26,207 nucleotides of DNA. Source: Catajapyx aquilonaris (Eukaryota). Each line of letters opens with the position of its first letter. The first letter of the stretch is position 1. The stretch covers positions 62,001 to 88,207 of the forward strand of contig KZ538281.1 of the NCBI GenBank assembly GCA_000934665.2. Direction: 5' to 3'. A program made the position numbers and the translations under genes. The notes below the pieces were generated by a model. The model did no database searches, was not told the origin of the DNA, and saw only the letters and a program-made list of their open reading frames with translations. This document shows, one piece after another, positions 2,921 to 24,799 of the stretch.

Positions 2921-3654
2921 ATGGCTCCTGTCAGAGTTGTTGTGGAATACTAGTACGTCAAAACATTATTAATTTTATGATGCCACAATCATACACATTT
3001 CACATTTGATTTCGCAAAGTACCGCGTTGTACTGTATAGTGTAATATAATTAAATTTAATATTGAGTGTTTGTCTTCTGAGATGGGCAGGGGTGGGGGGC
3101 GGGACGGGTTGTTTACTGTTTTTTAAAAATTAGTTCATATTTTGGGTTTGCTTGTGGTGGCTCCCGTCATCGCTGCATGACTACCCCTTTATATACTTGT
3201 AGTTTAAAGTACTTAGTATTAATCTTGCCACACGCTGCTAATTTTTCAGTGGGTCATGAGGGAACAGAAGGCGCTATGAAGAGCTGGCCAGGGCCATCGA
3301 AAGGGGCTGCTGACCTGCTGAAGTTCAGGGACATACTGGTAGTCGCCTAGGCAAGCAACATTTTTCATAAGATAACTGCACTTTATGCTTGTAGCTGAGG
3401 TTTTTATAACTGTAGTCAACTGAAGTATAATTTTTAGACATTATTTTGTGAAGTTAGTGATGTCAACGTGGCTTATTTTAAAATATCTTCATTTATTTAC
3501 AGGGTCATTTGAAATTATGGTAAATGGTACCCTCATTTACTCCAAGTTAGCAAAACGTAAGTTCCCTGTTTATGATGAAATCGTCAGTATCGTTAAGGAT
3601 GTCAGCAAAGGGAAGGAATGCAGACAAGCAGTTCTAGTGGCTGATGATGTCTAA
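2921..3654 (+). CDS. SelW/MIEN1-like (Rdx family) selenoprotein or its pseudogenising copy; exons 2921-2952, 3250-3350, 3503-3654
   Basis: Spliced translation MAPVRVVVEY-Y-GS-U(TGA 3257-3259)-GNRRRYEELARAIERGC-(TGA 3311-3313)-PAEVQGHTGSRLGSFEIMVNGTLIYSKLAKRKFPVYDEIVSIV... matches the Rdx pattern VEYCxxU...GSFE(I/V)xVNGxLIYSKL...FP. Intron 2 probably uses a GC donor (AG|GCAAGC). A SECIS lies downstream. Confidence 0.85.
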
Positions 3655-3775
3655 TGAAAAAGATTACGTGGATTGTCATTTTTTTCTTGGCACACACGTA
3701 CACCATTTGGAAGAAACATGGTTTGGTTGCATATTGGTTTAATTAATTTGGTAATATTTCCCTTGCGATTTGTAA

Positions 3776-3840
3776 CTCTACATATAATGACGACTTCCTT
3801 ATAAAATGAGATACGAGGATGTCTGATGCTTTAAGTAGAG
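3776..3840 (+). promoter_or_regulatory. SECIS element (selenocysteine insertion sequence) in the 3' UTR
   Basis: Helix I CTCTAC/GTAGAG; core ATGAC (3787-3791) and TGAT (3824-3827); helix II pairs 9 of 11 positions (GACTTCCTTAT / ACGAGGATGTC); AAA at 3803, 12 nt after ATGA. Confidence 0.85.
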
Positions 3841-3923: not shown

Positions 3924-4044
3924 GGAACAGTAGATGACATGATTTATTAAATAAAAACAAGTACAAAAAATGTAAAATATCTTCATTAACAAAATTTGCA
4001 TGTACTGCTGTGGTACATCTGCAAACACAAATATGCAAAAAGGC
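3924..4044. repeat. ~120-bp direct repeat, copy 2, carrying back-to-back polyA signals for the convergent SelW-like (+) and F-box (-) genes
   Basis: AATAAA at 3950-3955 on + and TTTATT at 3943-3948 (AATAAA on -); near-identical to 2502-2618. Confidence 0.9.
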
Positions 4045-4158
4045 ACAAAAAAATATGCGATCACCCAATTCTCTTGTAATAAATGTCATGTTAAACTAGT
4101 ATGTAATTGCTTAAAAACTACGAGCCCAATAGAAATTATAAAAATTACTAATTTCCAG

Positions 4159-5391
4159 TTACAATGACAGAGACGTAATTTGCTTGATTCTAATGACAAG
4201 TTGTGAATTAATGTCCGGCGCTTGCTCTAATATTTGTATGGAATTGAGCTTCCGGCACTGAGAAATGTCCAGTACCCTGAGTTGCGTGCAGGCTTGTATC
4301 AAGTTAAGGACAGCGCCGGTTGCGACATGGTCAGAGTAGCTTATGTCCAGCTTCGTTAAGAGCTTGCAATTCGATGTGATTACATCAAGACAGGAATCAG
4401 TGAGCGCCGAGCATGTGATTCCGAGCACTTCCAAGTTGGAGGCCATTTTTGAAGACAGCAGTGCATGCAATGCTGCAACCGTGACGCTTCCAAGAGCCGT
4501 TATGTTAAGATGTCGCAAATTACACAAGTTGTGGATACCTTCTGATGCGGAACAGTCCTCAGGTAAATGGGTTACACTCACGCTCAACTCTTCGAGGAGG
4601 TGGCATTTCGCAAGAAGATGAGGTGCCCTCATACTGTGCCACGAAGTGTCAAGTTTCTTCAGCTGCTTTCCAACGGTTGCAACGATAAACTCCGTTTCAT
4701 CATTAGTCTGATATAATTTAACATCACACAGCTTTGGATATACTGCTGCGTATGTACCGCTCATTGTTGAATTACAATTACCTGATATAGTCAGCCTTTC
4801 CAGGTTGGAACAAACCGACAGTGCTTCCAACGGATGCTTCCCATCAGCCGGATCGTCCCAGAAGTCGATCTCCACTTCCCGAAGCTCCTTACAATTTATC
4901 GCAACTAATCCCAACGGATCGGTTGAAACAGTACGTGTCGTACTTAGCACCAGTCGTTTCAACCTGTGCGCCGTGTTGGCAACATGTTCAAGCAGCAAGT
5001 CCGCATTACTCAACCACATATTCAGCTCCAAATTTTCAAGCATTGTTGCCTGCTCCAGTAGTCGAACGGCTTTGTCTATAGTTAACATATGTGCGTTGAA
5101 AGTCATCGACCGCCAAAGCGTCGGATCTTGCGCTAGTACGTTCCAGTCTTTGCAAACGAGGGCCGCTCCTCTTGTAATATCGCAGTGGCTCAAGTAGGAA
5201 AAAATGTGCAGCTTAATCTCATTCGCAAGATCATTTATGGAAATTCTATCCTGAAATTATTATTATTATTATTAATATTTATCATTATTATTATTTTTTG
5301 GCTGGCGGATACATACATTTCCTTCAGAATTACTGCTGGCAACAACAACACAATGCCCAGTTTTCCTCCTCTTGGCTTCTGGTCCAGACAT
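4159..5391 (-). CDS. F-box/leucine-rich-repeat (FBXL-type) protein, 388 aa; exons 5391-5317, 5250-4159
   Basis: Exon 1 MSGPEAKRRKTGH...SEGN, GTATGT donor, TTTCAG acceptor (phase 0); F-box motif INDLANEIKLHIFSYLSHCDITRGAALVCKDW; then LRRs (LENLELN, LKRLVLS, LERLTIS, LTKLDISYS, LRVLDISQC). Confidence 0.9.
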
Positions 5392-5542
5392 TTTCGTCTA
5401 ATTAATCGGCTAATTAATTTTTTGGGGGAAATTAATAAATTTTTCTTCATCACATGTCAGCCATCATAAATGAAGTACAACTTGCCGCCAACAGATGGCT
5501 ACACATGTTGGCTCCAAAAAAAAAAAAGGTTGGCTAAAAGGA

Positions 5543-5556
5543 CACCAGATGGCAGC
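5543..5556 (+). promoter_or_regulatory. CTCF-like motif CACCAGATGGCAGC upstream of the F-box gene
   Basis: Resembles the CTCF core CCACYAGRKGGCRS; motif match only. Confidence 0.35.
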
Positions 5557-5760
5557 GCGGCTTTTCCGGCGGCATTTTTGAAATTATTTTTCCGAAAATT
5601 CCCCCAAAAAAACACACAAATAAAAATCGGTCAACTTTTGGGCTGCCATAATAATTACCGGTAAAAAATCTGCGTATTATTAATCATCAGCTAATTTTTA
5701 TTGAGCGTACTTATGACAATTATGGTGGTCCACCCTGCATTTTGCTGTTGTGCATAAGTT

Positions 5761-8372
5761 TTATCCGATGCGTAAGCCTCTGTAGTTCATCCAAACCCGA
5801 AAAACCGGTAGACCAGGAGATCCAAAGAGATTGACCAGCAGAAACTGTAACAAACGACCACAAAGACGAGAGAGAGTCATGTGAAACCCTTTTTGGGAGG
5901 TGTCATATAATATATACCTTGATTGCTTCTTGCCATGAGATTGAGGACAGCTCCTGCTGAGACATAGAGATGGTCAGCAGGCACAGCTTCCGGTATCCCT
6001 GTTCGATGGTGTGCTGGTCTATCTCGGACATGAAGAACATTTCGTCCAGTACTAATTTCACCTCCACATTCTCGGTTGCATTAAGTTCCATTGCTTCTTT
6101 GTGGAGGGTCGTGTACCTTTGAAAGTATAACAAAAAGTTTGAAATGAACCTGCAATCCAGTATTACAGCAAACGAATACCATGGGCAGGGAAAGATGACC
6201 TTCTCCTCAATATCGCCTTTCTTCAACTTCCTACTTAACGACGTCACGTCGCTCATCTGTTTGTGCAGAGAGATAATATCTTTATTTTTGTCCCCCAGCA
6301 TCTCATTTAACACTGAGGAAAGAGAGAGGACGATGTGCAGTGAAAGGCTGACGGGACGAAAGTGTCAGGAGTCGTGGAGGAGAGGGGCAGCGTCGCGCAT
6401 TAGCAAAGCCACAATAACGCTCGTATCTTATTCCCTTACATGCGATTTTCCTGTTGTAAACTGGCTCCATGTTGGCCCTGACCTTCTTGACCACCCTGGC
6501 GTACTCGGCCTCCAGCTTGTTGTTGGTGGCAGTAAACCCCTTCCTGGTGAGGTACAGGAGGTCGTCGGCGAAGATGACGGACTTCCTCTTCTTCAGTTTT
6601 TCCTTCGGAGGCACTTTCCATGGAGGAAGGCCGGAGAAGCTCCGTCGAACCAACCTTGCAGGCGACGGAGCTGGCCATTCAGGAATAAGTTGCCGGTGGC
6701 CGTACTCTGCCGGTTCAATCCCTACGACTGTTCCTAGCAATGACGACACCCTCCCCTCCCTTAATAAATGGGGGGGGGGGGGGTAATTAATTAATTATAT
6801 AGTCATCATCGTCATCATCAATAACATTACAAGAAAACCCCTCGCTTATTCGCTCAGAGAAAACAACTTGTTTGCTCCTGCTTTTTCTTGCACTGCATAG
6901 GATAAGTACATCATAATAATTATTATGAACTTATTTTAGGCATGGCAATCGGTACCTGTAAGCACTGGGCAGATGATTATCCTGCCCTATAAAATCCATC
7001 CCATCTGCTTTCCGATGCTTGTAAATCTTGTTCTTTAACATCTCTCGATTACATTTCTTGCGAAGTGCAATGAGTTCGTTGTATGGCATGGTAATCTGCA
7101 AACACGGAAAATTGTTGTTTAAAAATTAATATTGTAGTTTGTGTCGTACATAATGTGCACCAAAAAAATTTGATGTCCTGGCACTCAACCGTCAGCACTG
7201 TGCCGCCATGTTTAAGATTATCTATAATATTAAAATCATATAGTAGGCACGTGTAGCGTATGTGCAGTATAAGCCTTCTCATTGGTCCGATTCATACTGT
7301 TACCTCGACGTTTCAGATTGGCCCGCGTTCAGCGCATGCGCAATGGGTCGGCCACCGTTGTCGCTGTTCGTCTCTCCCGTCACCACGACCCTCCCCCGAA
7401 TCGGTCGCTGGTTATTGAAAAATAAGTTTTTCGAGTTGATTTTTTAAAATCTGCTGAGTGCCACAGGTTTAAAGCGCTATGAAACGTTTGTACGAAATAA
7501 TTATTATCGACTTATATACAGTACATCTCTCTCCAGATCCTTCTCCGTCAAGTTCAGCATGCTGACCAGCAGCTTCTTGATATTCCACACCTTTCGGATC
7601 CAGTTCCTCAACTGAATCAGACGTGCTGCTCTGAAAAGAAAAAAACGAGCCATGATTCGACATCAGTTAAATAATTAATTACAATTATTATCGACTGACT
7701 CACTCGAGCCTTTCTTCCCATTCATCCACTTCATCGGGCATCTCCAGCGTCTTCTGTGCTAATGCCAGATCCATCTTAATCTTCGCATCTTCTCTCTCTT
7801 TCCTCCTTATCAACTCTGCAGTTTCCTCAGCATTCACAGGGTACTTTTTACGCAGGTTCTGCAAGTAGTTCTGACCACACCTTACTCCTACAATACACAG
7901 ACGTATATATGGTTCAGACCAAATAGACATAGGTGGTCTTACATGGGGAAAAAACATTACATATTACAAACCTGTCAGAAGATCTTGAGACATCTCAAGA
8001 AGCTGCTGAATTCCTGTTAATCCTCCGATTGTCTTGGGCATAGGACACAATTTGATCTCATCGCTCCCATAAGGAGCAAGAACTAGAGGGTTTCCAGGAC
8101 TGAACGTTCCATATTTCTGAAAAAAGTAATGTCCTGTACGTTTACGTTGCTGCGGTATTGTTACATCTTTTTTTTACATCTCTTTACTTATTGAAGCAAC
8201 ATTACCTTAACCAATTTTCGAAGGTTCACTCGTCTCCTCGGAGGTGGTTGAAATTCCTTTCGATCCTGAAATTCAAAAAATATTATGCTGATTGGTAATC
8301 CTCTTTTACAAAACAGCACCAATGCCAATTGAACAATACTTATGGTGGTTCTTGTATGAGTTTACTTGCCAT
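5761..8372 (-). CDS. Unassigned protein X1 (~457 aa), paralogue of X2; exons 8372-8370, 8265-8206, 8116-7972, 7887-7704, 7630-7525, 7095-6956, 6759-6440 (junction uncertain; optional exon 6892-6831), 6312-6180, 6116-5918, 5844-5761
   Basis: Phase-compatible exon chain giving one ORF; collinear similarity to X2 throughout (PLVLAP, GGLxxIQxLLE, PPW, IFPCPWY, KLCLLTIS, WxxYRGL). Confidence 0.72.
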
Positions 8373-8611
8373 TTAGTTGTATACTTGGCGCTTCAGTTTC
8401 TCTTACGAAGCATATAATCTTCAGGATAAATATATTTTAAAAAAAACATGCACGGAGCAATTTCGTAAATATTTTTAAGTTACTGTGGAAACAAACACAG
8501 GGCCACCAACCACAACAAGGCAGCAGTTTCCATAAGTAACAATATTACGCTGCATATTTTCTTATAGCCTCTGGTGGCACTTTTATTGGCCCTTCCCAGC
8601 ACCTCATATAA

Positions 8612-11600
8612 TCATTCATCAATATAATCATTCTTCTTCCCCATTCTATTCGAACCATAGAGTCCTCTGTAGCCAACCCAACGATCAAAAGTGAACCCCG
8701 GAACCAGGAAGATGTTCTCCAGAATAAACTAGAGAAAAAAAAGGAGAGACGAAATCATCAATTTTACCTAAACAAACATTTATATGAATACACGTACCCT
8801 GATAGCTTGTGCCCACGATGTCGTGGCCAATTCCATGACTGGCAGAGATATCGTCAGAAGACACAACTTCTGTATACCTTTCTCCACCGAATACTCGTCC
8901 ATTTCAGAGAGATGGTACAGATTGTCCAAAGCCCTGTTCACATTGGGAGTGTCCGCCGCGTTCAGGTCTTCTGCCTGCTGGCAGAGGTCGACGTACCTGA
9001 TGAAGGGAATTGCGACAAAGACATTATAAGCAGTCATGCCACTCTATTCAGTATGTATGAGTTAGGTGGCATTAAACTTCTAAAGGACCTTACCAGGGAC
9101 AAGGAAAGATTGTCCTCTCTCTCAGAAACTCTGCCAGTGGCTGTTTTTTGCACGAGCTAATCATCCTGTAAGACTCCATCACGGACATGGACGGATCAAG
9201 AGTGCGCTCTAACTTTGAAGGCGGGACTGGAATGGACACAATTTAGTCAGCAGGGAGCATAATTATAGTACATAAGAGGCGCAATAAACTTCTATCGGCG
9301 CCTTTGATGTCCGCGTCTCTCTGTTTGGGGCCGTTGCCAAGGCTGGCGGCCATTTTGAAGTGGGGGCAACGCCAACGAGGTATAAATAGGGTACAGGCAA
9401 AAATAGGGTCCGCCATCTTTGATGGTTTTGGCGGCCATGTTGAAGTGTGGGCAACGCCAACGAGGTATAAATAGGGTACAGGCAAAAATATGGTCCGCCA
9501 TCTTTGATGGGTTTTGGCGGCCATGGAAACTACACGGCAAGAACACGCGCGAATCAAAGATGGCGGACCCTATTTTTGCCTGTACCCTATATTTATACGT
9601 CGTTGGCGTTGCCCCCACTTCAAAATAGCCGCCAGCCTTATTGGCAACGAGCCCCAAACAGAGAGACGCGGAAATCAAATGTTTGCGCCTCATGCTCCCT
9701 GCTGTAAAGTTAGATGGGCTTTTTTTCACGAGCGCAACCTAGTGCGCACCCAGTCTCGCGCAGCTCCATTGTTCCGACTGAAATCTGCGCGAAGTGCGAT
9801 GCGCACTCTGTTGCTGTATATAGCCTACTGACTTTTGCACTTTTGCTTGAAGGTGTTCTCCATGTTGATCTTGATCTTCCTGGCCACCCTGTTGTACTCC
9901 TTGGTCAGTCGCTGGTGCATCTCCATGAAGTCGTCTCTGGTGGACTGGGCGACGTCCGTGGCCATGACGACGCTTCCTCCGGGTATGGGCGCCGGGTCCA
10001 GCAACGTCCTCTGCCACGGTGGCTGTCGACGCTCGCCTTCCTTCGCCGGCGTCCTCTTCTCCAGGTATTGCTGGTTAGGGAACTTGCTTACCCGGCGTCC
10101 CATGCAAGCCTCTTTCGCTGACCTGGAAATTTCAGGAGATTACTATGGGAAAGCCCTTCTATAGGGCGCATGCGTGAAAAACCACTCGCTTCGCTCCAGT
10201 TTCGCTCGCGTTTTTTCTAGACCTGCGGCCTGCGGTGGACAGCACCATGTGTGTTTTTTTAATTTAAAGAGATATGGGGATGGAATTTTCGTCCCACTGC
10301 TACTTACTGCTAATTTAGAAGTAGGTCTAGCAGCAACTGCTAAGTTAGCAGTAACTATAGGAGTGGGACGAAAATTCCACCTATAATTTCGCCGCATTTA
10401 ATTATTGCAGCTGACTACCCCTTGTAGGGAAATGTCGTGATGGTGACGGTGATGATGATGATGATGGTGATGGTGATGATGATGATGATGATTAAGAAAG
10501 CAGTGGGTATACTCACTTCTCCCATACGCTGAGTTCTTTAGCGGCGATCCTGGTGATATTTTGCGTCATCAGGTTTTTTCCCATTCTATAATATGTATTT
10601 TTTAATTAATAAAAAATTGGCAATAATTGGTCGAAATTAAAAAAAAAGTTAAAACAAATAAGCAGCTTACACTCGATGTTTGCTGTCGTAAATCCTCCTT
10701 AATACGCGAAAATAGTTTGATGCCTTGAGCGACTTCACCACTTCTGGTTTCATAATTTTCTGCGATAAGAAACGATTGTCAAATAATATTAATTTCTCAT
10801 TATTTTGATATACAACATAGGGTGCTGGACATTTAATAGTATCGTACTGGTGGCGCCACCATCCGATGGCGGCGAAATAGCATATTCGTAGTCACTCCGA
10901 TTCGCTCTTTTTCCGCGCCATCGGATCGTGGCGCCACCAGTGCGACACTATTACCAGGCGACATACATCAGAGCTCAGATGCTCCCGAGTCATGTTCAAA
11001 ATGCTGGTAAGGATCAATCTAATTGCATCCACTTTCTCCGCATAATTCTTCACACGAAGCCCGTGGTCCACTCTGCAATTAATTTTAGAACCGAGTTTAA
11101 TGACTTATTCAAACGAGCACATTAATTATTATAATTTATTATATAGAGACACACTTACTCGAACCTGTCTGTCCACTTGTCCGGTCTTAACAGTTCGGAC
11201 TCTTGTCCAGGCAAACTCTCCCTGCTCCTATTTTCTCTCATCCTAAGTGCCTTTCCCTCATTCGACAATTCAGGATAGTGACGCTTTAAAGCCGTTAAAT
11301 AGCTTTTACGCGCCTTGGTTTCTGCAAAAAAAAAATCGCAATTGTCTCTACAAAAATCGGAAGAAAAACTTTTTTTCTCCCGAGCCCTTCATTTTTAACC
11401 CTCTTGTAGCCTATGGTGTCTATACTTCCACACCATCTAGCGGGAGGTATAGTCACGTGAATGGGTGAGTTCGCAACTTCCACGCCAGACAGGCTCTCAA
11501 AATCGAGTTCTTTACCTCATAAAGCCTATTCTTTTTTAAAAAATTATTTTTTAAAAAATTAGTTTTACGTTTGTAAAGTGTCTCAGATATTTCCAGAAGC

Positions 11601-12022
11601 TCCTGGATCGCCTGCAATCCTCCCATATTGTTGAATACATCCTCAGGCAATATTCCGAGGGTGAATTTCTGAGATCCTGGAGGTGCTAAGACCAGAGGCC
11701 TCTCCTCGTCGAAGTCCCCGTACACAGCCCTCAGTTGACGTCGAAATGTCTCTCTCATCCTACGAAGACGTCTCGCTTCCTTCTGACGAACTTGATTCTG
11801 TGCAGCCATTTTGGCTTCCTTCTCGAGAAATTCATTCCGTACAATCTTTTTCTTCTCCTTAATTAAAAAAAAACACACATCATTTCGCATTCTTGATAAA
11901 AACAGGCACAATTATAAAGTAAGCCCCCATAGAGAGAGAGAGAAAAAAAATGCATGTGGTGTTGAGAATGAGCAATTAGATTAATATTATTATATGCTAT
12001 ATATTAGTAAAATACTTGCCAT
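8612..12022 (-). CDS. Unassigned protein X2 (485 aa); exons 12022-12020, 11857-11569, 11321-11159, 11072-10967, 10759-10671, 10585-10517, 10122-9833, 9226-9094, 8996-8798, 8728-8612
   Basis: All ten exons join in phase without stops (1458 nt); several strong donors (GTAAGT, GTATGT, GTAAGC, GTGAGT, GTAAGG); AATAAA after the stop (8587-8582); 106-, 133- and 199-nt exons have the same lengths as in X1. Confidence 0.78.
9248..9704. mobile_element. Non-autonomous foldback/MITE-like DNA element in an X2 intron
   Basis: Termini CAGCAGGGAGCAT / ATGCTCCCTGCTG; long internal inverted arms; an 85-bp unit is tandemly duplicated at 9345 and 9430; no clean TSD seen. Confidence 0.8.
9734..9814. repeat. Imperfect inverted repeat (degenerate MITE-like hairpin)
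   Basis: GCAACCTAGTGCGCACCCAGTCTCGCGCAG pairs imperfectly with CTGCGCGAAGTGCGATGCGCACTCTGTTGC. Confidence 0.5.
10281..10379. mobile_element. Palindromic MITE-like element in an X2 intron
   Basis: TGGAATTTTCGTCCCACT...TTACTGCTAA / TTAGCAGTAA...AGTGGGACGAAAATTCCA inverted arms. Confidence 0.65.
10438..10492. repeat. Imperfect (GAT)n microsatellite
   Basis: GAT/GGT run seen directly, intronic in X2. Confidence 0.9.
10834..10953. mobile_element. ~120-bp palindromic MITE-like element (possible TA target site) in an X2 intron
   Basis: TAATAGTATCGTACTGGTGGCGCCACCATCCGATGGCG / CGCCATCGGATCGTGGCGCCACCAGTGCGACACTATTA. Confidence 0.72.
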
Positions 12023-12536
12023 CTCTTATAACTAATGTAGACTAATTAAACGCAGATATTCTGTTACTGACAAACGGTACCAGACGTTCAAAGCCTGGTT
12101 CAAAGCCAGTAAACAGAATGCCGTTGCCTGGAATCACCAGAATTTCCATAGCAGCCATTGTAATGATGATGATGAATTGATGATGATTACTTTTTGAACA
12201 AATTCTTCCTCTAACTTTGCACAATAAACTTTCGTGGGTTCTTATAGGTATCTTCCATGGCGTTTTATTTCTATGCTTCAAAAAAGGTATTGTTTGAAAT
12301 AAAACGCCATTATAGGTTGATCTAATCATTTTTAATGATGAAATCTTATTTTACAACTGAGAATGCTCTGAGTTTAACGAGAAAATCCAAAGTGTACTTG
12401 AAACGATGCTCAGTAACAAACAGAAGCTTACAAAAAAAAAACAACTCTGTGGCAGCAGCACAAAGTTCACAACCTCATCTTTTCATTTCAATTAATTAAG
12501 TCGACATTTTAATCCAGATTAACTTTCTGTTTTTGA

Positions 12537-12906
12537 TCAGTTGCTCTCTGCAGCAGGAGTGAGGCTGCTGGGAATGATGGATGCTGCGTTATCATTGATG
12601 GCCTTCTCCAAGCAGTCCACCAGGATCATCTGTATGGCACCCTTCATGTTGCCACCGTCTCCTTTCTTATCGCATCCTTGGTCCTTGGGAAGCTGTTTCT
12701 CGCCTGCATCTGAAAAAAAGATAACGATAGGTAATATGATACGCAGCTTGACCTTCAGAAGAAGGAGACAACGAATGCTGTACTGTACCGTCAGTCTTTT
12801 GTGGACATGGCTGATGTTGTTGCTCCTTCTGGTCAATAAACATCATTTGGCCAAGGTCCAACAAGATGTTGGCCACTTCCACCTCCTTCTCATTCCACAA
12901 TGCCAT
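12537..12906 (-). CDS. Small unassigned protein (~96 aa); exons 12906-12789, 12709-12537
   Basis: Acceptor TCTTGTAG just upstream of the ATG; MALWNEKEVEVANILLDLGQ...KTD joined through a 79-nt phase-1 intron to DAGEKQLPK...MKGAIQMILVDCLEKAINDN...ESN*. Confidence 0.5.
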
Positions 12907-13591
12907 GGTTCCTACAAGACCACACCCAAAAAAAAAACAATCTCATTCAGTTCGGAGAGATAAACTTTATAGATAAACTTACAGAAGGAAGGAGATGCGT
13001 ATACGAGCGGATTCTGAGAATTACTCAAAGACACTAAAACGACAACACAGTGTGGTGCAAACAAGTAACGCAAAGAATGTGTGCCTAACTATTAATGAGA
13101 AAAATTGCACAGAATCTTCAGATGGAATGTTTCCAAAACATATACTATTGTTTCGGTACACAACGTGTGACAAACAGATGTTTCCTCCACCGAAGCTTTG
13201 CACTAATCAAGGACGCGTGTACTTACACTCGACAATTATTAATCCCATGCAAAAATTTTGCAACATAAGGACACAGTGTGGACTGTTTCACTCTCAGAAG
13301 CTTCAAAGAGTCTTGAGAAATCCTTGCAATTTTTTTTTTACTGAAGTTCCCATCAAGTAGGTGACTCAGGATATGTAACATATATGTGTTGCCTATTAAT
13401 GTACTGATAACCTGAGACATCATGTACTGCAAAAAATAGTGTCGCTTTTCTTTCTCACCCGGCGCGGTTTCATGTGGATCATATGGCCACAGGTCGAATA
13501 ATAATGAGAGATTAAACCTATCATAAAAAAAGAGGAAATGACTCATCCCATATCTATTAACCTTGCCTCCAGGGGTCTAACTAGACATCCA

Positions 13592-13661
13592 TGTGGGTTA
13601 ATGTCATTTATGCTTTTTAAGGCCATGGTCTTAAAAAAGCATTAAATGACATTAATCCACA
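13592..13661. repeat. 70-bp near-perfect AT-rich hairpin
   Basis: TGTGGGTTAATGTCATTTATGCTTTTTAAGGCCA / TGGTCTTAAAAAAGCATTAAATGACATTAATCCACA. Confidence 0.85.
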
Positions 13662-14248
13662 AATTGTTCGAAAGAAAAATTCGACTTGAGTTCGCAATGG
13701 TTGAAATTTGCAGATGATGCTGCTCTCGAATATATATATTTTTAAATAAAATACAATATCGAATACCCTTTAATGATGCTTGATTATCTCATTTATACTT
13801 ACAGAAATTAATTAGATTGATCCGACAGCCTATCTTAGGATTTGGAGGCACAAATTTTTTTATAAGAGAAAATCAACCTAAGGAAAACGTTCCAAATTTG
13901 CCTCCCAATTTGAGCAGGATGTGCCAACCTCAAAATAAACAACTTTAAAAATCGGTTTAAAAAAAATTAGAACCATATTAAAGTCGTGCAATTTAATCGT
14001 ACTTTTTTTTACAAATATGATTTTTTTTAAAATTAATTGTATCCTTACAGTGCAGTTGGCATGATTGTTGGAATGTTTCAGGTCATTGACCTCCAGATCT
14101 TTCATATATATTTTTTTGGAACTAATTATAATAAATTAATTGTTTTCCTTGTGGTAGCCAAGTAACGCGAAAAAATGCGCTCTAAATAGTTTTTTTGATA
14201 TAGATTTTGATACAGTTTTGAATAGTTTTTCCTGTGAAAAAATAAGAA

Positions 14249-17200
14249 ATGGAAGGTAAAAGAAGAACTACCATTGACAACGACGGCAGGTCCAGAAGCC
14301 TCGCCATTTCATCTCAACAACACGAGATGATTCCCTTTCAGAACAATAAGCCTCTGCACAACTTCCACATGGACTATCTTCACAGAAGGTATGTATATAA
14401 TAATGTTCTAATAATATCATTGTTGACCATCAAGCAGTCGATGGCACACTTTATAATAATAATTACAACAACAACAACAAGTCAATTGATTATTTCTTTT
14501 TTCCAGCGTCAGCCTGGAAGGAAAGAGGCTGCCTCGACAACCTCCACCAGATCCTCTGCAAAAGTACAGGATGAATTACCCAAGCATCATGCGCATACAC
14601 TTCAAAGAAACCCAAAAGTACGACACTCAAAGTTCCCAAGTAGCACGAATCGCCCTGGAATATCCCATGGATATCCAGATATCCACTGGATATTTGGATA
14701 TCCATGGGATATTCCAGGGTGATTCGTGCTACTTGGGTTGGGACAAAATTAGAGAACATAATGTGTCAGAATGGTTTAATTGCATATTTTTTTAACAAAT
14801 TAAATGTGTGACAAATTGTGCATTATTTTGTCTCTGTCTGCAGGAAGAAGAAACCGGTCGTCGAGCCCTGGAATCCTTTTTTTAACAAACAACAGGCGAA
14901 AGATGAGACGATTCATCCCAAGATCGTTCGTCACACCAAATCTCTGGGGCCAAAGTAAGAATACTCAAAACATATACAGATCAAAAAAGTGTGCAAATAC
15001 ATATATGAATCGCAAGCCAACAACATTTTGTACACTAACAAAATTCCAACATTATAGTTGAACATTGTTCATTTTCTCTCACTGTTTGTTTGTTCGTAGA
15101 ATAACGAGATATTCAGCTCCGACCACTTCTAAGAGACTACCAAGGGTGAAGGAAGCGTATGCAGCAAACGCCGGGATCAACCTACATCTGCAGAGCACTG
15201 CGGAAGTTCCGACTTATGATGGTCAGCGTAGGATGCCCAGCAAAGATAATAGGTATCATATTGTACAGGGTGTCTCTTTAACTATAAACCAGCGTTTGGT
15301 TTCAAAAATCAAAATGTCCCAACCAGCAGCAATGAGCGGTATATAGACAATTTCAAGAACAATGGTTGTGATCAACCTTTTTAAAAAAAAAGAGACATCT
15401 CTTTTGCAGAGAGAAGTCCAGGAACGACACTCGTCTTCCGATGAAGAGTCCAGCCAACAAGGGCATGATGGTTCGAGGCAATTGCATCATCAACCAGGCT
15501 CCAAGTTGCAAAATCAGCTTCACGCAGCTTCCGAGCAACCCGTCCTCGTAAGTGCCAAAAATATATATATATTGGCGAAAAAAATTACCACTGCGTTTTT
15601 TTTTCCCCCCAAATTTTCTTAACAGAGGTTCTGTCTCAGTGGACAGCATGTGCTCAACCAGCACGGACTCGTCGTCAGATCATGATGTGCGGGTTACCAA
15701 GCGACGTAATTACGAACGTCGTGGTACCTACTTGCGTTACAGCGCCCAACGCCTTGGGTCGAGGGAAAGGTATAACTTTACCGATGGCGTTTAACAAAAC
15801 GCACACAAGTTTTTCCACACCTCACCGACCATCATTTTTCCAGGAATCGCGAGACGGCGAAGATCAAGAAGAAGCGAAAGCATAAGCGCAATAAGGTGAA
15901 GGACATGAAGTCCGTGTATGTCCAGACAATGTCCCGGACGACAAATAAGACCAGGTACGCACTCCACGACTAATTAATTCGAGTCATTACTCAATCGAGA
16001 TAATTATCATGCGATGTGCCTTTTTTTTTTCCTTCCTTATTTAGTAGGACAGAGGCCCAGGTAGAGCGTACTAGAGCTCCAGCACCACGGTATCAAACCC
16101 CTGCTTACATCTGGAACCAGCCGGCCAACATGTAAGTGTTTTACTATTTTTAAAAAAAAAAATACAAACAAACAAACAAACAAAACAGGCTGATCTGTAC
16201 TACTCGGCGAAACGGCGGGAGTTGGGGTGGAGGCGAGGGCGACTTGAGCGAGCACGAATCTGTTGGCGTATCTGTATGGCTTTCGCAGACCGCATCGGTA
16301 CTGTCGCTCTTTGTGGTCCCGCCAGGCAATGTCCGTCCATTAGCCCGATAATTTCAATTAATTTCAGAGCTGGGCGCTTTTACGTGTGTGTGTGTGAATA
16401 ATGTATGCGTATGTGTGACGCCCTAGTGCATCTCTCCGGGGGCAAAGCCACAATAACGTTCGTTGGGACAGTCAGTCACACGTTGACTCATTGGTAACAT
16501 AGTTATAGCTTTCCACGCTCGGGAAGGACAACTATGCAAATGTTGAAATGTATACATGCACCTAGGCGATGAGTCAACGTGTGTAGGGTCAGAGTCACGT
16601 CCAGCTAATTCTGCGTATGATGTTATACGCTATCGGCAAAATGGGCCAACACTGCCCGGTTCGCCACAAAACGCACAGTGCATTTTATGGGGTTACTATA
16701 TAAAATTTTGTGGCGCAGCATCCAACGAACGTTGTTGTGGCTTCGCCATGGCGAGATGTACTTGGGATGTCACATGTTGCATAACTGTTTCGCTTCAGGT
16801 CGAGGGATGGAACAGGCTGGAGTCCTGCACCCGACACTGCCGTCGGAATAGCCACTGCTCGCCGGCAACTGATGGCCCCCAACAAGCTGGTGGCCACGAT
16901 GAGGAGGGAGAACCTGGAGCTCTCGAGGAAACTGAATAAAATGAAAGCGGATGTCTACAAAACGGTACGGTTTGATGCTGTAACATAGATTGGTACTTTC
17001 ATTATTATACCATACCGTATTGACCTCTTCAGACGACCAACTCCCACATATTGAGGATGCAGATCTCGAGGGCCAAGGAGGTTCGAGCCAACGCAGGAGT
17101 CACATCTCGAACCCTGGCCAGGAAGCTGGAGGACGAGATGGCTGCAATCGCCAGGCTGAAGAAGGACATCAAGCAGAGGAACGTCACCTTGGAAGTCGTC

Positions 17201-19050: not shown

Positions 19051-20631
19051 TCAGAGTTTCTCCCCCGTTGCGATGTCAAGACGTCTCTTGTGCGTCCTGA
19101 GATGCAGCTTCATCGATTGCTTGTTGATGAACCGTTTGCTGCACATGCTGCATGACACTGGCTTCTCTCCGGTGTGACTCAGTATGTGGAACTGTAGCAC
19201 TTGATTCGTTGTGAAGGCCTTCCCACATATGATGCATCCGAAAGGCCTCTCGCCAGTGTGGGTCCGCAGGTGAACTCGCATGTTGTCAGGACGATTGAAT
19301 TTCTTGGGGCAGTATTTGCACGGGAAGCTTTTCTCGCCAGAGTGAACAACACTATGCTTCTTCAGATAGTAAAATCTCACAAACCGCTTCCCGCATTCAC
19401 ATACATAGGGCTTCAAACCCGCATGTATGTTAAGATGATCCCTGAAAGTATTGCGGGTAGCAAACTGTTTGCTGCAAATGTGGCACAGGAAAGGGGTAGG
19501 TCTTCCCCGTTTGTGCGATTTGTTGTGAATACTAAGCTCGCGTCTGGTCCTATACTTTTCTTTGCATGTGTGGCAATGGAACCACTTTTCCTCGGCGGTC
19601 TTTTTCGGCCGATGTACTTTCGGGTGACGAACCAGCAAATGCAGTTTGAGATCAACCCGCTTGGAAAACTGCTCGCTGCACTTGTGACACGAGAGATAAA
19701 ACTCATCGCCATAAACAACTTCAGGTGTGATCACGTTTGATAAGTTGTGTGTTACCCAATGACTTTCCAGCTCCGCTTTTGCATAAAAACTTTCCTTACA
19801 CATGAAACAATGGAAGTTCTTTTGAACCGCATGCCCTTCACTATCGCCATCTTCGCTTAAAAACCTACTCAAATCACTCTCTTGTTTAACAATACACATG
19901 CCAATCTCAGCAGGTGAGTTAATTTTATCAGAATTAATCTCTTTCACAACAGTATCAGCAGTCACATCAACATCAGAAGGATTGCTACGAGGTTTGCGCC
20001 GATAGACCCGAAGTGCCTTATCTTTCATTACGACTACAACCGGCTTCGTTTCTCCCTTGATGGGCTGGATGGGCAAATCAATAAAACCGGGATTTGGCTC
20101 CGATTTCATTGGAACAATTATGGGCACTTGCGGCGGTGGCTGTTTGGGCGTCTTGCGCTTGTACACGCGAAGAGGCTTGTAACCTTCAGCCGCATCTGGA
20201 TTACTTGTGGAATTTGGTGGAGGTTGGCTAAATATTGTCGGGTCCACTGGCATTACAGGGATAACAGGAATTCGGGGAGCGCGAGGAGACGGCTTGTACA
20301 CCCGCACTGGCCGCTTGACATCGCACACTGGAAAATCAACTTCGGGTATACCGTCCCACAAAGGGTCTTCCTCCGCACGTGAGGTTCTGGGTCCAAAAGT
20401 GTCCATGTTATGAATCATATTGTGAATGTTCAACTCCTTTATGGTCACGAAACTCCGGCTGCATTGCAAACACTGGAACAATTCAGTTTCCTCCGTGCGG
20501 ACATTGCCATGAAAGGCTCTTCTCACCGCAAGATCTTCATGTCCGTCGCCCTCCATCTCTTCTTCGACTTTGATCGAGTCGAACAGGATCATCTCGAAAG
20601 AACTATTTGCAGCCATTGTGCTCGACATCAT
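19051..20631 (-). CDS. Multi-C2H2 zinc-finger protein, 526 aa
   Basis: About nine C2H2 fingers, with a C-terminal array linked by AGLKPY, SGEKSF, TGERPF and TGEKPV; acceptor TTTATTTCAG 5 nt upstream of the ATG. Confidence 0.93.
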   Translation of the reverse strand: MMSSTMAANSSFEMILFDSIKVEEEMEGDGHEDLAVRRAFHGNVRTEETELFQCLQCSRSFVTIKELNIHNMIHNMDTFGPRTSRAEEDPLWDGIPEVDFPVCDVKRPVRVYKPSPRAPRIPVIPVMPVDPTIFSQPPPNSTSNPDAAEGYKPLRVYKRKTPKQPPPQVPIIVPMKSEPNPGFIDLPIQPIKGETKPVVVVMKDKALRVYRRKPRSNPSDVDVTADTVVKEINSDKINSPAEIGMCIVKQESDLSRFLSEDGDSEGHAVQKNFHCFMCKESFYAKAELESHWVTHNLSNVITPEVVYGDEFYLSCHKCSEQFSKRVDLKLHLLVRHPKVHRPKKTAEEKWFHCHTCKEKYRTRRELSIHNKSHKRGRPTPFLCHICSKQFATRNTFRDHLNIHAGLKPYVCECGKRFVRFYYLKKHSVVHSGEKSFPCKYCPKKFNRPDNMRVHLRTHTGERPFGCIICGKAFTTNQVLQFHILSHTGEKPVSCSMCSKRFINKQSMKLHLRTHKRRLDIATGEKL

Positions 20632-20763
20632 AGAACCTGAAATAAATTTACAAAAAGCATTAAAGGCGTTAGAAAATTTTCATCGCAACAATTTTGATAC
20701 TACGAGCCGGTTATTACACACACAAAAAATATATTTTTGACATTCCAGCCATTTGTGTTCATC

Positions 20764-23052: not shown

Positions 23053-24799
23053 TTACTTCTCGAGCAAATACAGTTTGTACAGCTCTTCGTGATCGGGATT
23101 CTTGAACGTCGGAACAAAGTTGACCAGCAAAATCTCTTGGAATCCTTCGTCCAAAGTAGGTTCCTCGTACTTCTTGTTGTGCATGGCATAAATCATGTCG
23201 CTTACGTGTGCGTGGCTGCTGTCTGTGTATTCGCGGAACTGGAAGAAACGCAACGTTAGCGCAAACAGTCTTCTCAAAACACTAGAGACACTTACTCTGT
23301 TGTTATGCTTTGCGTGCTCCACTTCGGTTGTCATAATAAAGCATCTGCATGGCACGCCAGCTTTTTTCGCCACGTCGATAAACCGCTTTCTGGAGTCCTT
23401 GTCCGGATTTGTGTTGTCGACTACAGCCTTTTTGCCTTCCTCCAGCGCCTTTTTAATCACGGCTGCACACTTTTGCCAGGTTCCGTGAGTGTCTCGGTTG
23501 GCCGACACGTATCCTGCCGAAACCAGATGCTGCTCGGCGAAATGGCTTTTACCGGAACCGGGCGTTCCCACCATTATCACCACCTGTAAGCAACATTATA
23601 ACATGAAGAACCTGCGACTCTCATAGTATAAACAGATACCTCTAGCTTCTTAGAAGTGATGGTGGCATTGGCCTGTTCGCACAGAGGTCTCGTAGGATCC
23701 AGATTTGATGGGCAAAATTTCGGGAGCGTGAATTTGGTTGTGGGCGGATACTTGAGGAAGTGCTCCTCTGGTGTTACGAATGGAAGGTTAAGATTCATGG
23801 CAAAAAGGCGATCACCGCAGCTGAAGTCCTTCTTCACACCAGCTTTCCATCCAGCATCTCTACCAGCTGCGTCTCCGCAATAGAACGATTCCTTCATGTC
23901 TACTTCGATGCCTCCATTTTTCTAGAGTAACAAAACATTGTAATGACAGATTCAACATATAAATCCAATCCAATTACAGTTTCAACGAGGTATTTCCACA
24001 TCGCAGTGCATGGCTTCCGAAACAATCCTTTTCCTGTCGATACGAATGCTTGAATGGGGACTCCCAGCTTGGAAATGACGGCTTCTATCTTCTCCTTTAT
24101 GTCAGACGCTTTGGTCTTCCCTGTCGCAATTCCAGCTTGGTTCGTAATGAGCACTATTTTGTATCCGTCTTGAACCAGGGACTTTAGCTTTCCGGGAACC
24201 TCAGCGTAAATGATCTTCCAGTCGTACTTGTCCTTTGCGAACACCCTGCCCGACGCAGTGGTGATCAGTGTGCCATCCATGTCATACGAAGCTATCTGTA
24301 ATTTCAGAAAGTGATTACAGCCAAGAAGTTCACATTACGTAAGTGCCGCCCACGGTAATTATCACCCGCAATAAGCGAACGTAATGAGATAAGATCACCT
24401 TTGAGGAGGGAGCGACTCCAGGCTTGGTGAAAATGAGCAGCGAATCATCGCACACATCCTCCCATCCGCCCTTCCCGTCTGATTCCATCTTTGACTTCTT
24501 CGCCTGGGGCTGCTCTTCCGCAACCTCGCTCCTCTTCTTCCCCTTTGTCGCTCCACTTTTGGGGCTGGCCTTATTCTCTTCGGCTACGACCCCGGCATTC
24601 TTCTCCCCAATCTCCTCGTCCTCTCCTCCCGAGAACTCCACCACGTGCCTGTACTTCCCCGCCAGCAGCTCCAGCACGTCTCCGTGTCTCAGCGTCACCT
24701 TCTTCCCCACCCCAATTGCGGCTCCCTTGGCTCTGGACAGGTTGGCGCCAACCTGCTCCACAATCACGATTCTGTTGTTGCAATCAGCCACTATGGCAA
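23053..24799 (-). CDS. PNKP: Bifunctional polynucleotide kinase 3'-phosphatase, 5' partial; exons 24799-24399, 24295-23978, 23921-23640, 23583-23296, 23238-23053
   Basis: C-terminal half of an FHA-like domain (LRHGDVLELLAGKY); HAD phosphatase motifs YDMDGTLITTASG, TNQAGI, RKPCTAMW, SFYCGDAAGR, DFSCGDRLFA; kinase P-loop GTPGSGKS, NRDT, VVDNTNPD. Confidence 0.96.

Follow-up and report, generated by a model that had tools for sequence, protein, structure and literature searches.

Gene structure at the locus

On the forward strand of the window, i.e., the whole stretch of 26,207 nucleotides that was analyzed, three exons at positions 2921–2952, 3250–3350 and 3503–3654 splice to a frame of 94 codons. 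Judged from its sequence, this is a true gene of three exons that belongs to the Rdx family and is of the SelW/MIEN1/SelW2 type. Rdx proteins are small thioredoxin-like redox proteins, in which a Cys-x-x-Sec active site starts the first helix. The following features were assigned to the gene and its 3' region:

2921..2952, + strand: coding part of exon 1, beginning with ATG, with the ten codons M-A-P-V-R-V-V-V-E-Y followed by TA of the junction codon
2953..3249, + strand: intron 1 (GT-AG), donor gtacgt at 2953, acceptor tttttcag
3250..3350, + strand: exon 2, from the last base of the junction codon through G-S-U-G-N... to its phase-1 end
3257..3259, + strand: TGA at the Sec position of the C-x-x-U motif, found at the same place in the related loci L001, L002, L005, L006 and L007
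3311..3313, + strand: second in-frame TGA, either a second Sec codon or a premature stop, beside a conserved Pro and kept in the second haplotype
3351..3502, + strand: intron 2 (GC-AG), ag/gcaagc ... tttacag/gg, phase 1, one codon before S-F-E
3503..3654, + strand: coding part of exon 3, the C-terminal half of the Rdx domain (G-S-F-E-I...S-K-L...F-P...), with the TAA stop at 3652–3654
3777..3839, + strand: SECIS-like stem-loop, with the AUGA core at 3787–3790, AAAA in the apical loop and UGAU at 3824–3827; it starts 123 nt after the stop
3946..3955, + strand: overlapping poly(A) signals, ATTAAA at 3946–3951 and AATAAA at 3950–3955

A first-pass annotation of this DNA had proposed three exons joined at 2952/3250 and 3350/3503 to give a protein of ~94 codons, and both the positions and the phases of these junctions match those of the related loci described below. 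It had also claimed that the open reading frame track misses the gene. The ORF scan does overlook it, because the frames of the gene contain no ORF of at least 80 amino acids. The AATAAA that was said to follow the stem-loop was located at 3950–3955. The gene model, the TGA and the stem-loop of that annotation were thus confirmed, while the Y-G-S-U form of the motif, the second TGA and the GC donor had been omitted from it.

Exon 2 opens at 3250 with the letters T GGG TCA TGA GGG AAC. Intron 2 was accepted as a GC-AG intron because its junction is conserved and because an in-frame alternative GT donor at 3339 was rejected; its flanks, AG/GCAAG, are near the donor consensus. Splicing from 3339 would delete residues aligning with G-x-x-G-R of the homologues, and the tblastn match extends to 3346. 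Three further alternatives to the gene model were discarded. An upstream stretch reading ...R-V-V-Y-C in the ORF at 3081–3350 lies out of frame and lacks a donor, and an internal GT...AG pair at 3253–3328, which would remove both TGAs, leaves a 3-nt exon or creates a TAG. A variant genetic code with TGA as a sense codon is unlikely, since the window has ORFs of 365–542 codons that stay open when the standard code is applied.

The gene lies between a single-exon C2H2 zinc-finger ORF (597–1829) and an F-box/LRR ORF (4162–5256), both on the opposite (–) strand. A search with the F-box gene yielded matches of only 25% identity. A second single-exon C2H2 zinc-finger ORF is located at 19051–20679 (–), and exons of PNKP (polynucleotide kinase 3'-phosphatase) were recognized at 23053–24334 on the – strand (PNK3P, E 1.2e-34; AAA_33, E 1.7e-17). 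The ORF at 1717–1989 contains a long run of Ile codons at about 1900–1990, which indicates a simple trinucleotide repeat. Long hairpins at 10279–10381, 13588–13667 and 14634–14738 matched unrelated microRNA families on both strands, far below the gathering scores (for example, MIR7807 with 56.6 against a gathering score of 90), and they are probably inverted-repeat (MITE-like) elements and not miRNA genes.

Membership of the Rdx family

The Rdx assignment made in the first-pass annotation was borne out by exon 3, which alone matched PF10262 with 26.5 bits (cut-off 22.6; E 7.7e-6) over profile positions 44–74 of 74; exon 2 alone had no Pfam match. PF10262, the Rdx family, comprises SelW, SelT, SelH, SelV and MIEN1. 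An exhaustive HMMER scan with exon 3 returned 23 proteins with E <= 1e-3; every one of them is of the Rdx/MIEN1 type, and none exceeds 58% identity. A protein-language-model look-up with the same exon led to Rdx clusters, and the word-indexed protein searches with it ('longer' and 'near') returned no match. When a profile built from exon 3 and five homologues was compared with solved structures, human MIEN1 (2LJK) was found with E 3.8e-16 and mouse SelW (2NPB) with E 1.7e-3.

A tblastn search with proteins of the family had been suggested as a check and was run with the homologues. It found this locus only, thus a single gene copy in the window, with E values down to 5e-14 for exon 3. Exon 2 was matched by the homologues P0022 at 3245–3340 (E 0.005) and P0016 at 3272–3346 (E 0.022), both matches spanning the second TGA, and the order and frame of the exon 2 and exon 3 matches are those of the gene model.

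The features of the second half of the family, i.e., the G-x-F-E-V strand, S-K and F-P, are present: F2, E3, S13, K14, F20 and P21 of exon 3 are invariant in alignment A2, with K14 and P21 invariant in alignment A1 too. The C-x-x-C/U redox motif immediately after the first strand is absent from the window allele, which has Y-G-S-U, and present in the second haplotype as C-G-S-U. There is no C-terminal Cys-a-a-X box, as the window protein ends in ...A-D-D-V with no Cys in its last four residues; among the 21 short homologues within the 23 HMMER matches, 18 have a Cys at position –4. A hidden exon carrying such a box (G-C-I-L-V-stop at 3725–3742, in another frame) was considered and rejected, having no phase-compatible acceptor and being broken in the second haplotype by a 2-nt indel. 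We take this stretch of the 3' UTR as chance or a relic.

Conserved putative selenocysteine codon and introns in related loci

A scan of metagenome contigs with the narrower of two alignments yielded seven related loci (L001–L007). The claim that the TGA at 3257–3259 occupies the Sec position of Rdx proteins agrees with these loci, as the codon aligns with a TGA within C/G-G-x-U-G-Y in all five that show the N-terminal exon (L001, L002, L005, L006 and L007). The homologue P0022 prints W at the aligned position (C-G-A-W-G-Y), and we infer that the gene caller translated a TGA as Trp here.

Intron positions are conserved as well. Intron 1 interrupts the Cys codon in phase 2 in the window, L001, L005 and L006; exon 1 of L006 ends in ...GAG TAC TG/gtgagc, and the next exon in L001, L005 and L006 starts with the last base of the Cys codon. 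L006 and L007, although from different metagenome records, represent the same G+C-rich homologue, with exon 1 ending in TG/gt and exon 2 reading C-G-M-U-G-Y. Comparison of these two with the window therefore places the intron within the Cys codon in very different genomes. Intron 2 of L005 is in phase 1, one codon before S-F-E, as in the window, and L003 and L004 have the acceptor at the same position.

The SECIS-like element

In eukaryotes, SBP2, eEFSec and tRNA-Sec use the SECIS to read an in-frame UGA as selenocysteine. The first-pass annotation had described a stem-loop with ATGA...AAA...TGAT geometry ~120 nt after the stop; it was found at 3777–3839, beginning 123 nt past the stop, and is the sole match to Rfam SECIS_1 (RF00031) at E <= 1 on both strands of the 26-kb window. 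The alignment to the model is full-length, with AUGA, the 12-nt helix arm, AAA and CUGAUG conserved, and all motifs and spacings are present. In helix 2, the 5' arm of 12 nt following AUGA, GACUUCCU, pairs with AGGAUGUC. The score of 25.8 bits lies below the gathering score of 35 (E = 0.013 when 801 bases were searched and 0.42 for the whole window, both over all 4227 families). However, the same model matched only one of the seven related loci (L004, 28.5 bits), though five of them carry an in-frame Sec TGA. The model thus appears to have low sensitivity for this family, and the sub-threshold score is therefore weak evidence against the element.

The stem-loop has a fold z-score of –2.5. A crude SECIS descriptor of our own matched once in the window, at 3777–3839, against a mean of 0.75 per shuffled window, and matched none of the related loci, so it is insensitive. 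A search for tRNA-Sec within the window gave no match.

Changes in the window allele

Relative to the related loci, the window allele departs from the family at several positions. The codon across the exon 1/2 junction is TA/T (Tyr), which gives Y-G-S-U instead of C-x-x-U; relatives carry TG (Cys) where exon 1 of the window ends in TA. The last base of exon 1 (2952) is A in the window and G in relatives and in the second haplotype, and this A both converts the motif Cys to Tyr and deprives the donor of its consensus G at position –1. In the window allele, Asn replaces the conserved Tyr that follows Sec, and the intron 2 donor at 3351 is GC (gcaagc) and not GT.

The second TGA (3311–3313) lies 54 nt after the first and stands where relatives have V, I, F, Y or H beside the conserved Pro. 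A TGA at this position was found in none of the eight aligned homologues covering the site, L001, L002 and L005 (inspected by eye), or the two solved structures. By their coordinates, both UGAs precede the SECIS by more than 300 nt in the mRNA. A-to-I editing that would rescue TAT to TGT at 2952, along with TGA to TGG at 3313, was considered and set aside, as it is unneeded at 2952, where the G form exists as DNA.

A second haplotype

Haplotypes were compared in the DNA contigs of one sample. Two forms of the locus are present at similar depth, about 32–40 each, one of them identical to the window where covered. They differ at 16 of 285 coding positions (~6%) and at 9 of 321 adjoining non-coding positions (~3%). 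The coding differences comprise 12 nonsynonymous and 4 synonymous changes, with pN/pS 0.89, a value that comes from 16 differences only and is compatible with moderate constraint (omega about 0.5).

In the second haplotype, position 2952 is G, making the junction codon TGT (Cys), and position 3263 is T, so its motif is C-G-S-U-G-Y as in the family consensus. Gaps adding up to 3 nt immediately precede the second TGA and leave it in frame, and a 6-nt gap at 3642 is also in frame. Both coding indels therefore keep the frame, whereas three of the four indels in adjoining non-coding sequence have lengths not divisible by three; across 285 nt the reading frame has survived ~6% divergence and three gap events. 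The 16 substitutions introduce no further stop codon. The SECIS of the second haplotype, which could be followed to 3813, has no substitution, and its only change is a 2-nt indel at 3782, within the internal loop upstream of AUGA. The sequences also differ at 3340–3385.

The A at 2952 was seen in no DNA contig, and since only a G-bearing contig covers this site, A-2952 may represent either an uncommon allele or a mistake in the assembly. The second form could itself be a recent paralogue, i.e., a very recent duplicate, instead of a haplotype.

Within intron 1, a stretch of 211 nt (2988–3198) is absent from the second haplotype, which joins 2987 to 3199. It contains a repeat (core about 3045–3160) whose words reach a depth of 4,000–15,000 in the DNA contigs, compared with about 40 elsewhere, and a search of the window found no second copy of it. 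The stretch resembles a polymorphic insertion of an element present in very high copy number.

A selenoprotein locus probably under relaxed constraint

On balance we lean towards a genuine SelW/MIEN1-type selenoprotein locus under relaxed constraint, of which the window allele is most likely crippled. Relaxed constraint is suggested by the pN/pS of 0.89 and by the coding divergence (16/285) set against the non-coding (9/321), and also by two changes of the window allele that fall on the invariant C and Y of the motif. A reading as decay is based on the loss of the –1 G at donor 1, the GC donor of intron 2, the lost Cys box and a second TGA that occurs in no relative. The gene would give an mRNA with a SECIS about 130 nt past the stop, on which UGA 3257–3259 may be read as Sec. 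The window allele would have lost function through the changes from Cys to Tyr and from Tyr to Asn, the GC donor and the second UGA. With a SECIS on the message, the second UGA would presumably be read partly as Sec and partly as a stop. As its C-G-S-U-G-Y motif is intact, the second haplotype may still make a two-Sec protein.

The first-pass annotation had concluded that the genome encodes, or recently encoded, a SelW-type selenoprotein. This hedge fits the loss of the motif Cys and Tyr, the unique second TGA and the pN/pS obtained here; its interpretation was supported for the Rdx assignment, the TGA at the Sec position, the SECIS and the junctions.

It is possible, although we consider it the less probable case, that the locus encodes a fully functional two-Sec protein of the SelW type served by a single SECIS, with the Tyr/Cys and Asn/Tyr differences being tolerated polymorphisms or assembly errors. 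Such a reading fits the in-frame indels, the want of any other stop, the presence of the second TGA in both copies, in frame despite the adjoining 3-nt indel, and a SECIS core that is intact and, in the second haplotype, without substitution to 3813. The distance of both UGAs from the SECIS is also in its favor, and PMC3737529 reports that, in the mRNA of one mammalian selenoprotein, Sec was inserted at whichever UGA position was tested. PMC3473315 (amphioxus) and PMC2375036 (Ostreococcus lucimarinus) supply precedents. Against these points stand the near-neutral pN/pS, a window allele without the motif Cys and the conserved Tyr, and a second-site TGA shared with no homologue examined. The residue replaced would moreover be a structural hydrophobic where helix 1 ends, distant from the active site, according to the alignment with 2LJK and 2NPB and their thioredoxin-like fold. 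A more specific version, in which a two-Sec SelW-type protein with the second Sec in place of the helix-1 hydrophobic segregates with an old divergent Tyr allele, is held only tentatively. If true, a two-Sec gene with a Tyr allele would amount to a test, set up by nature, of whether an Rdx protein can do with Sec alone.

We regard it as improbable that the locus is a dead, unprocessed pseudogene whose working paralogue lies elsewhere and whose second TGA is an inactivating nonsense mutation; as regards the window allele, this explanation overlaps with relaxed constraint and was counted within it. Near-neutral pN/pS, the lost Cys box, the GC donor and the second TGA unique among relatives could all be explained in this way, and a table in PMC3473315 gives 1 to 3 SelW genes per invertebrate genome studied. 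A dead copy is contradicted by the frame kept over 285 nt at ~6% divergence with three gap events, by the perfect C-G-S-U-G-Y motif of the second haplotype, and by the intact SECIS; a single copy is present within the window. That there is no gene at all, the exons and stem-loop being chance resemblances, is effectively refuted, for although the SECIS scores below the Rfam gathering score and exon 2 alone has no Pfam match, exon 3 exceeds the Pfam cut-off, the tblastn matches to exons 2 and 3 have the expected order and frame, two intron positions and phases are conserved, and the only SECIS match of the window lies 123 nt past the stop on the same strand.

Significance

Annotation routinely truncates or misses selenoprotein genes, and a correct call here fixes one gene model. 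SECIS-bearing selenoproteins of the SelW/MIEN1 type are common in aquatic animals and protists, so the gene itself is ordinary; were the DNA from an insect, finding a selenoprotein of the SelW type would carry more interest. What is notable is the second in-frame UGA common to two copies that diverge by ~3–6%, and the coexistence of an allele with a Cys-less motif and one that bears the Cys. Together they could represent a selenoprotein gene caught being lost, or a rare multi-Sec small redox protein.

Comparison with known systems

The nearest sequence relatives found belong to the MIEN1/SelW2 type. MIEN1 (C17orf37, Rdx12) is also the best structural match of the family profile (2LJK, over the whole length), and it has in common with the window protein the G-Y..Y.EL helix, the G-x-F-E-V strand and the S-K-L and F-P motifs. 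Unlike MIEN1, the window protein has no C-terminal Cys-a-a-X box, has Sec and not Cys at the second motif position and, in the window allele, Tyr at the first, and has an extra TGA. PMC3316567 describes SelW2 as a selenoprotein of fishes, frog and shark, with Rdx12 as the mammalian form that has Cys.

SELENOW (2NPB) resembles the window protein in its Rdx fold of ~90 residues, an N-terminal C-x-x-U, the lack of a prenylation box and a single SECIS in the 3' UTR, although the similarity is weaker than that of MIEN1. Vertebrate SelW contains a single Sec. One source that seemed to offer a further two-Sec precedent, PMC2874816, was discarded, since its 'two Sec' means two SECIS elements in Ciona SelW1. 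The closest parallels to the two UGAs are a SelW with 2 Sec residues found in amphioxus (PMC3473315) and a SelW-like protein with two predicted Sec in Ostreococcus lucimarinus (PMC2375036). Going by their descriptions, both have two in-frame UGAs interpreted as Sec, comparable to the two UGAs of the gene studied here, and in them, as at this locus, the second Sec is a prediction from sequence.
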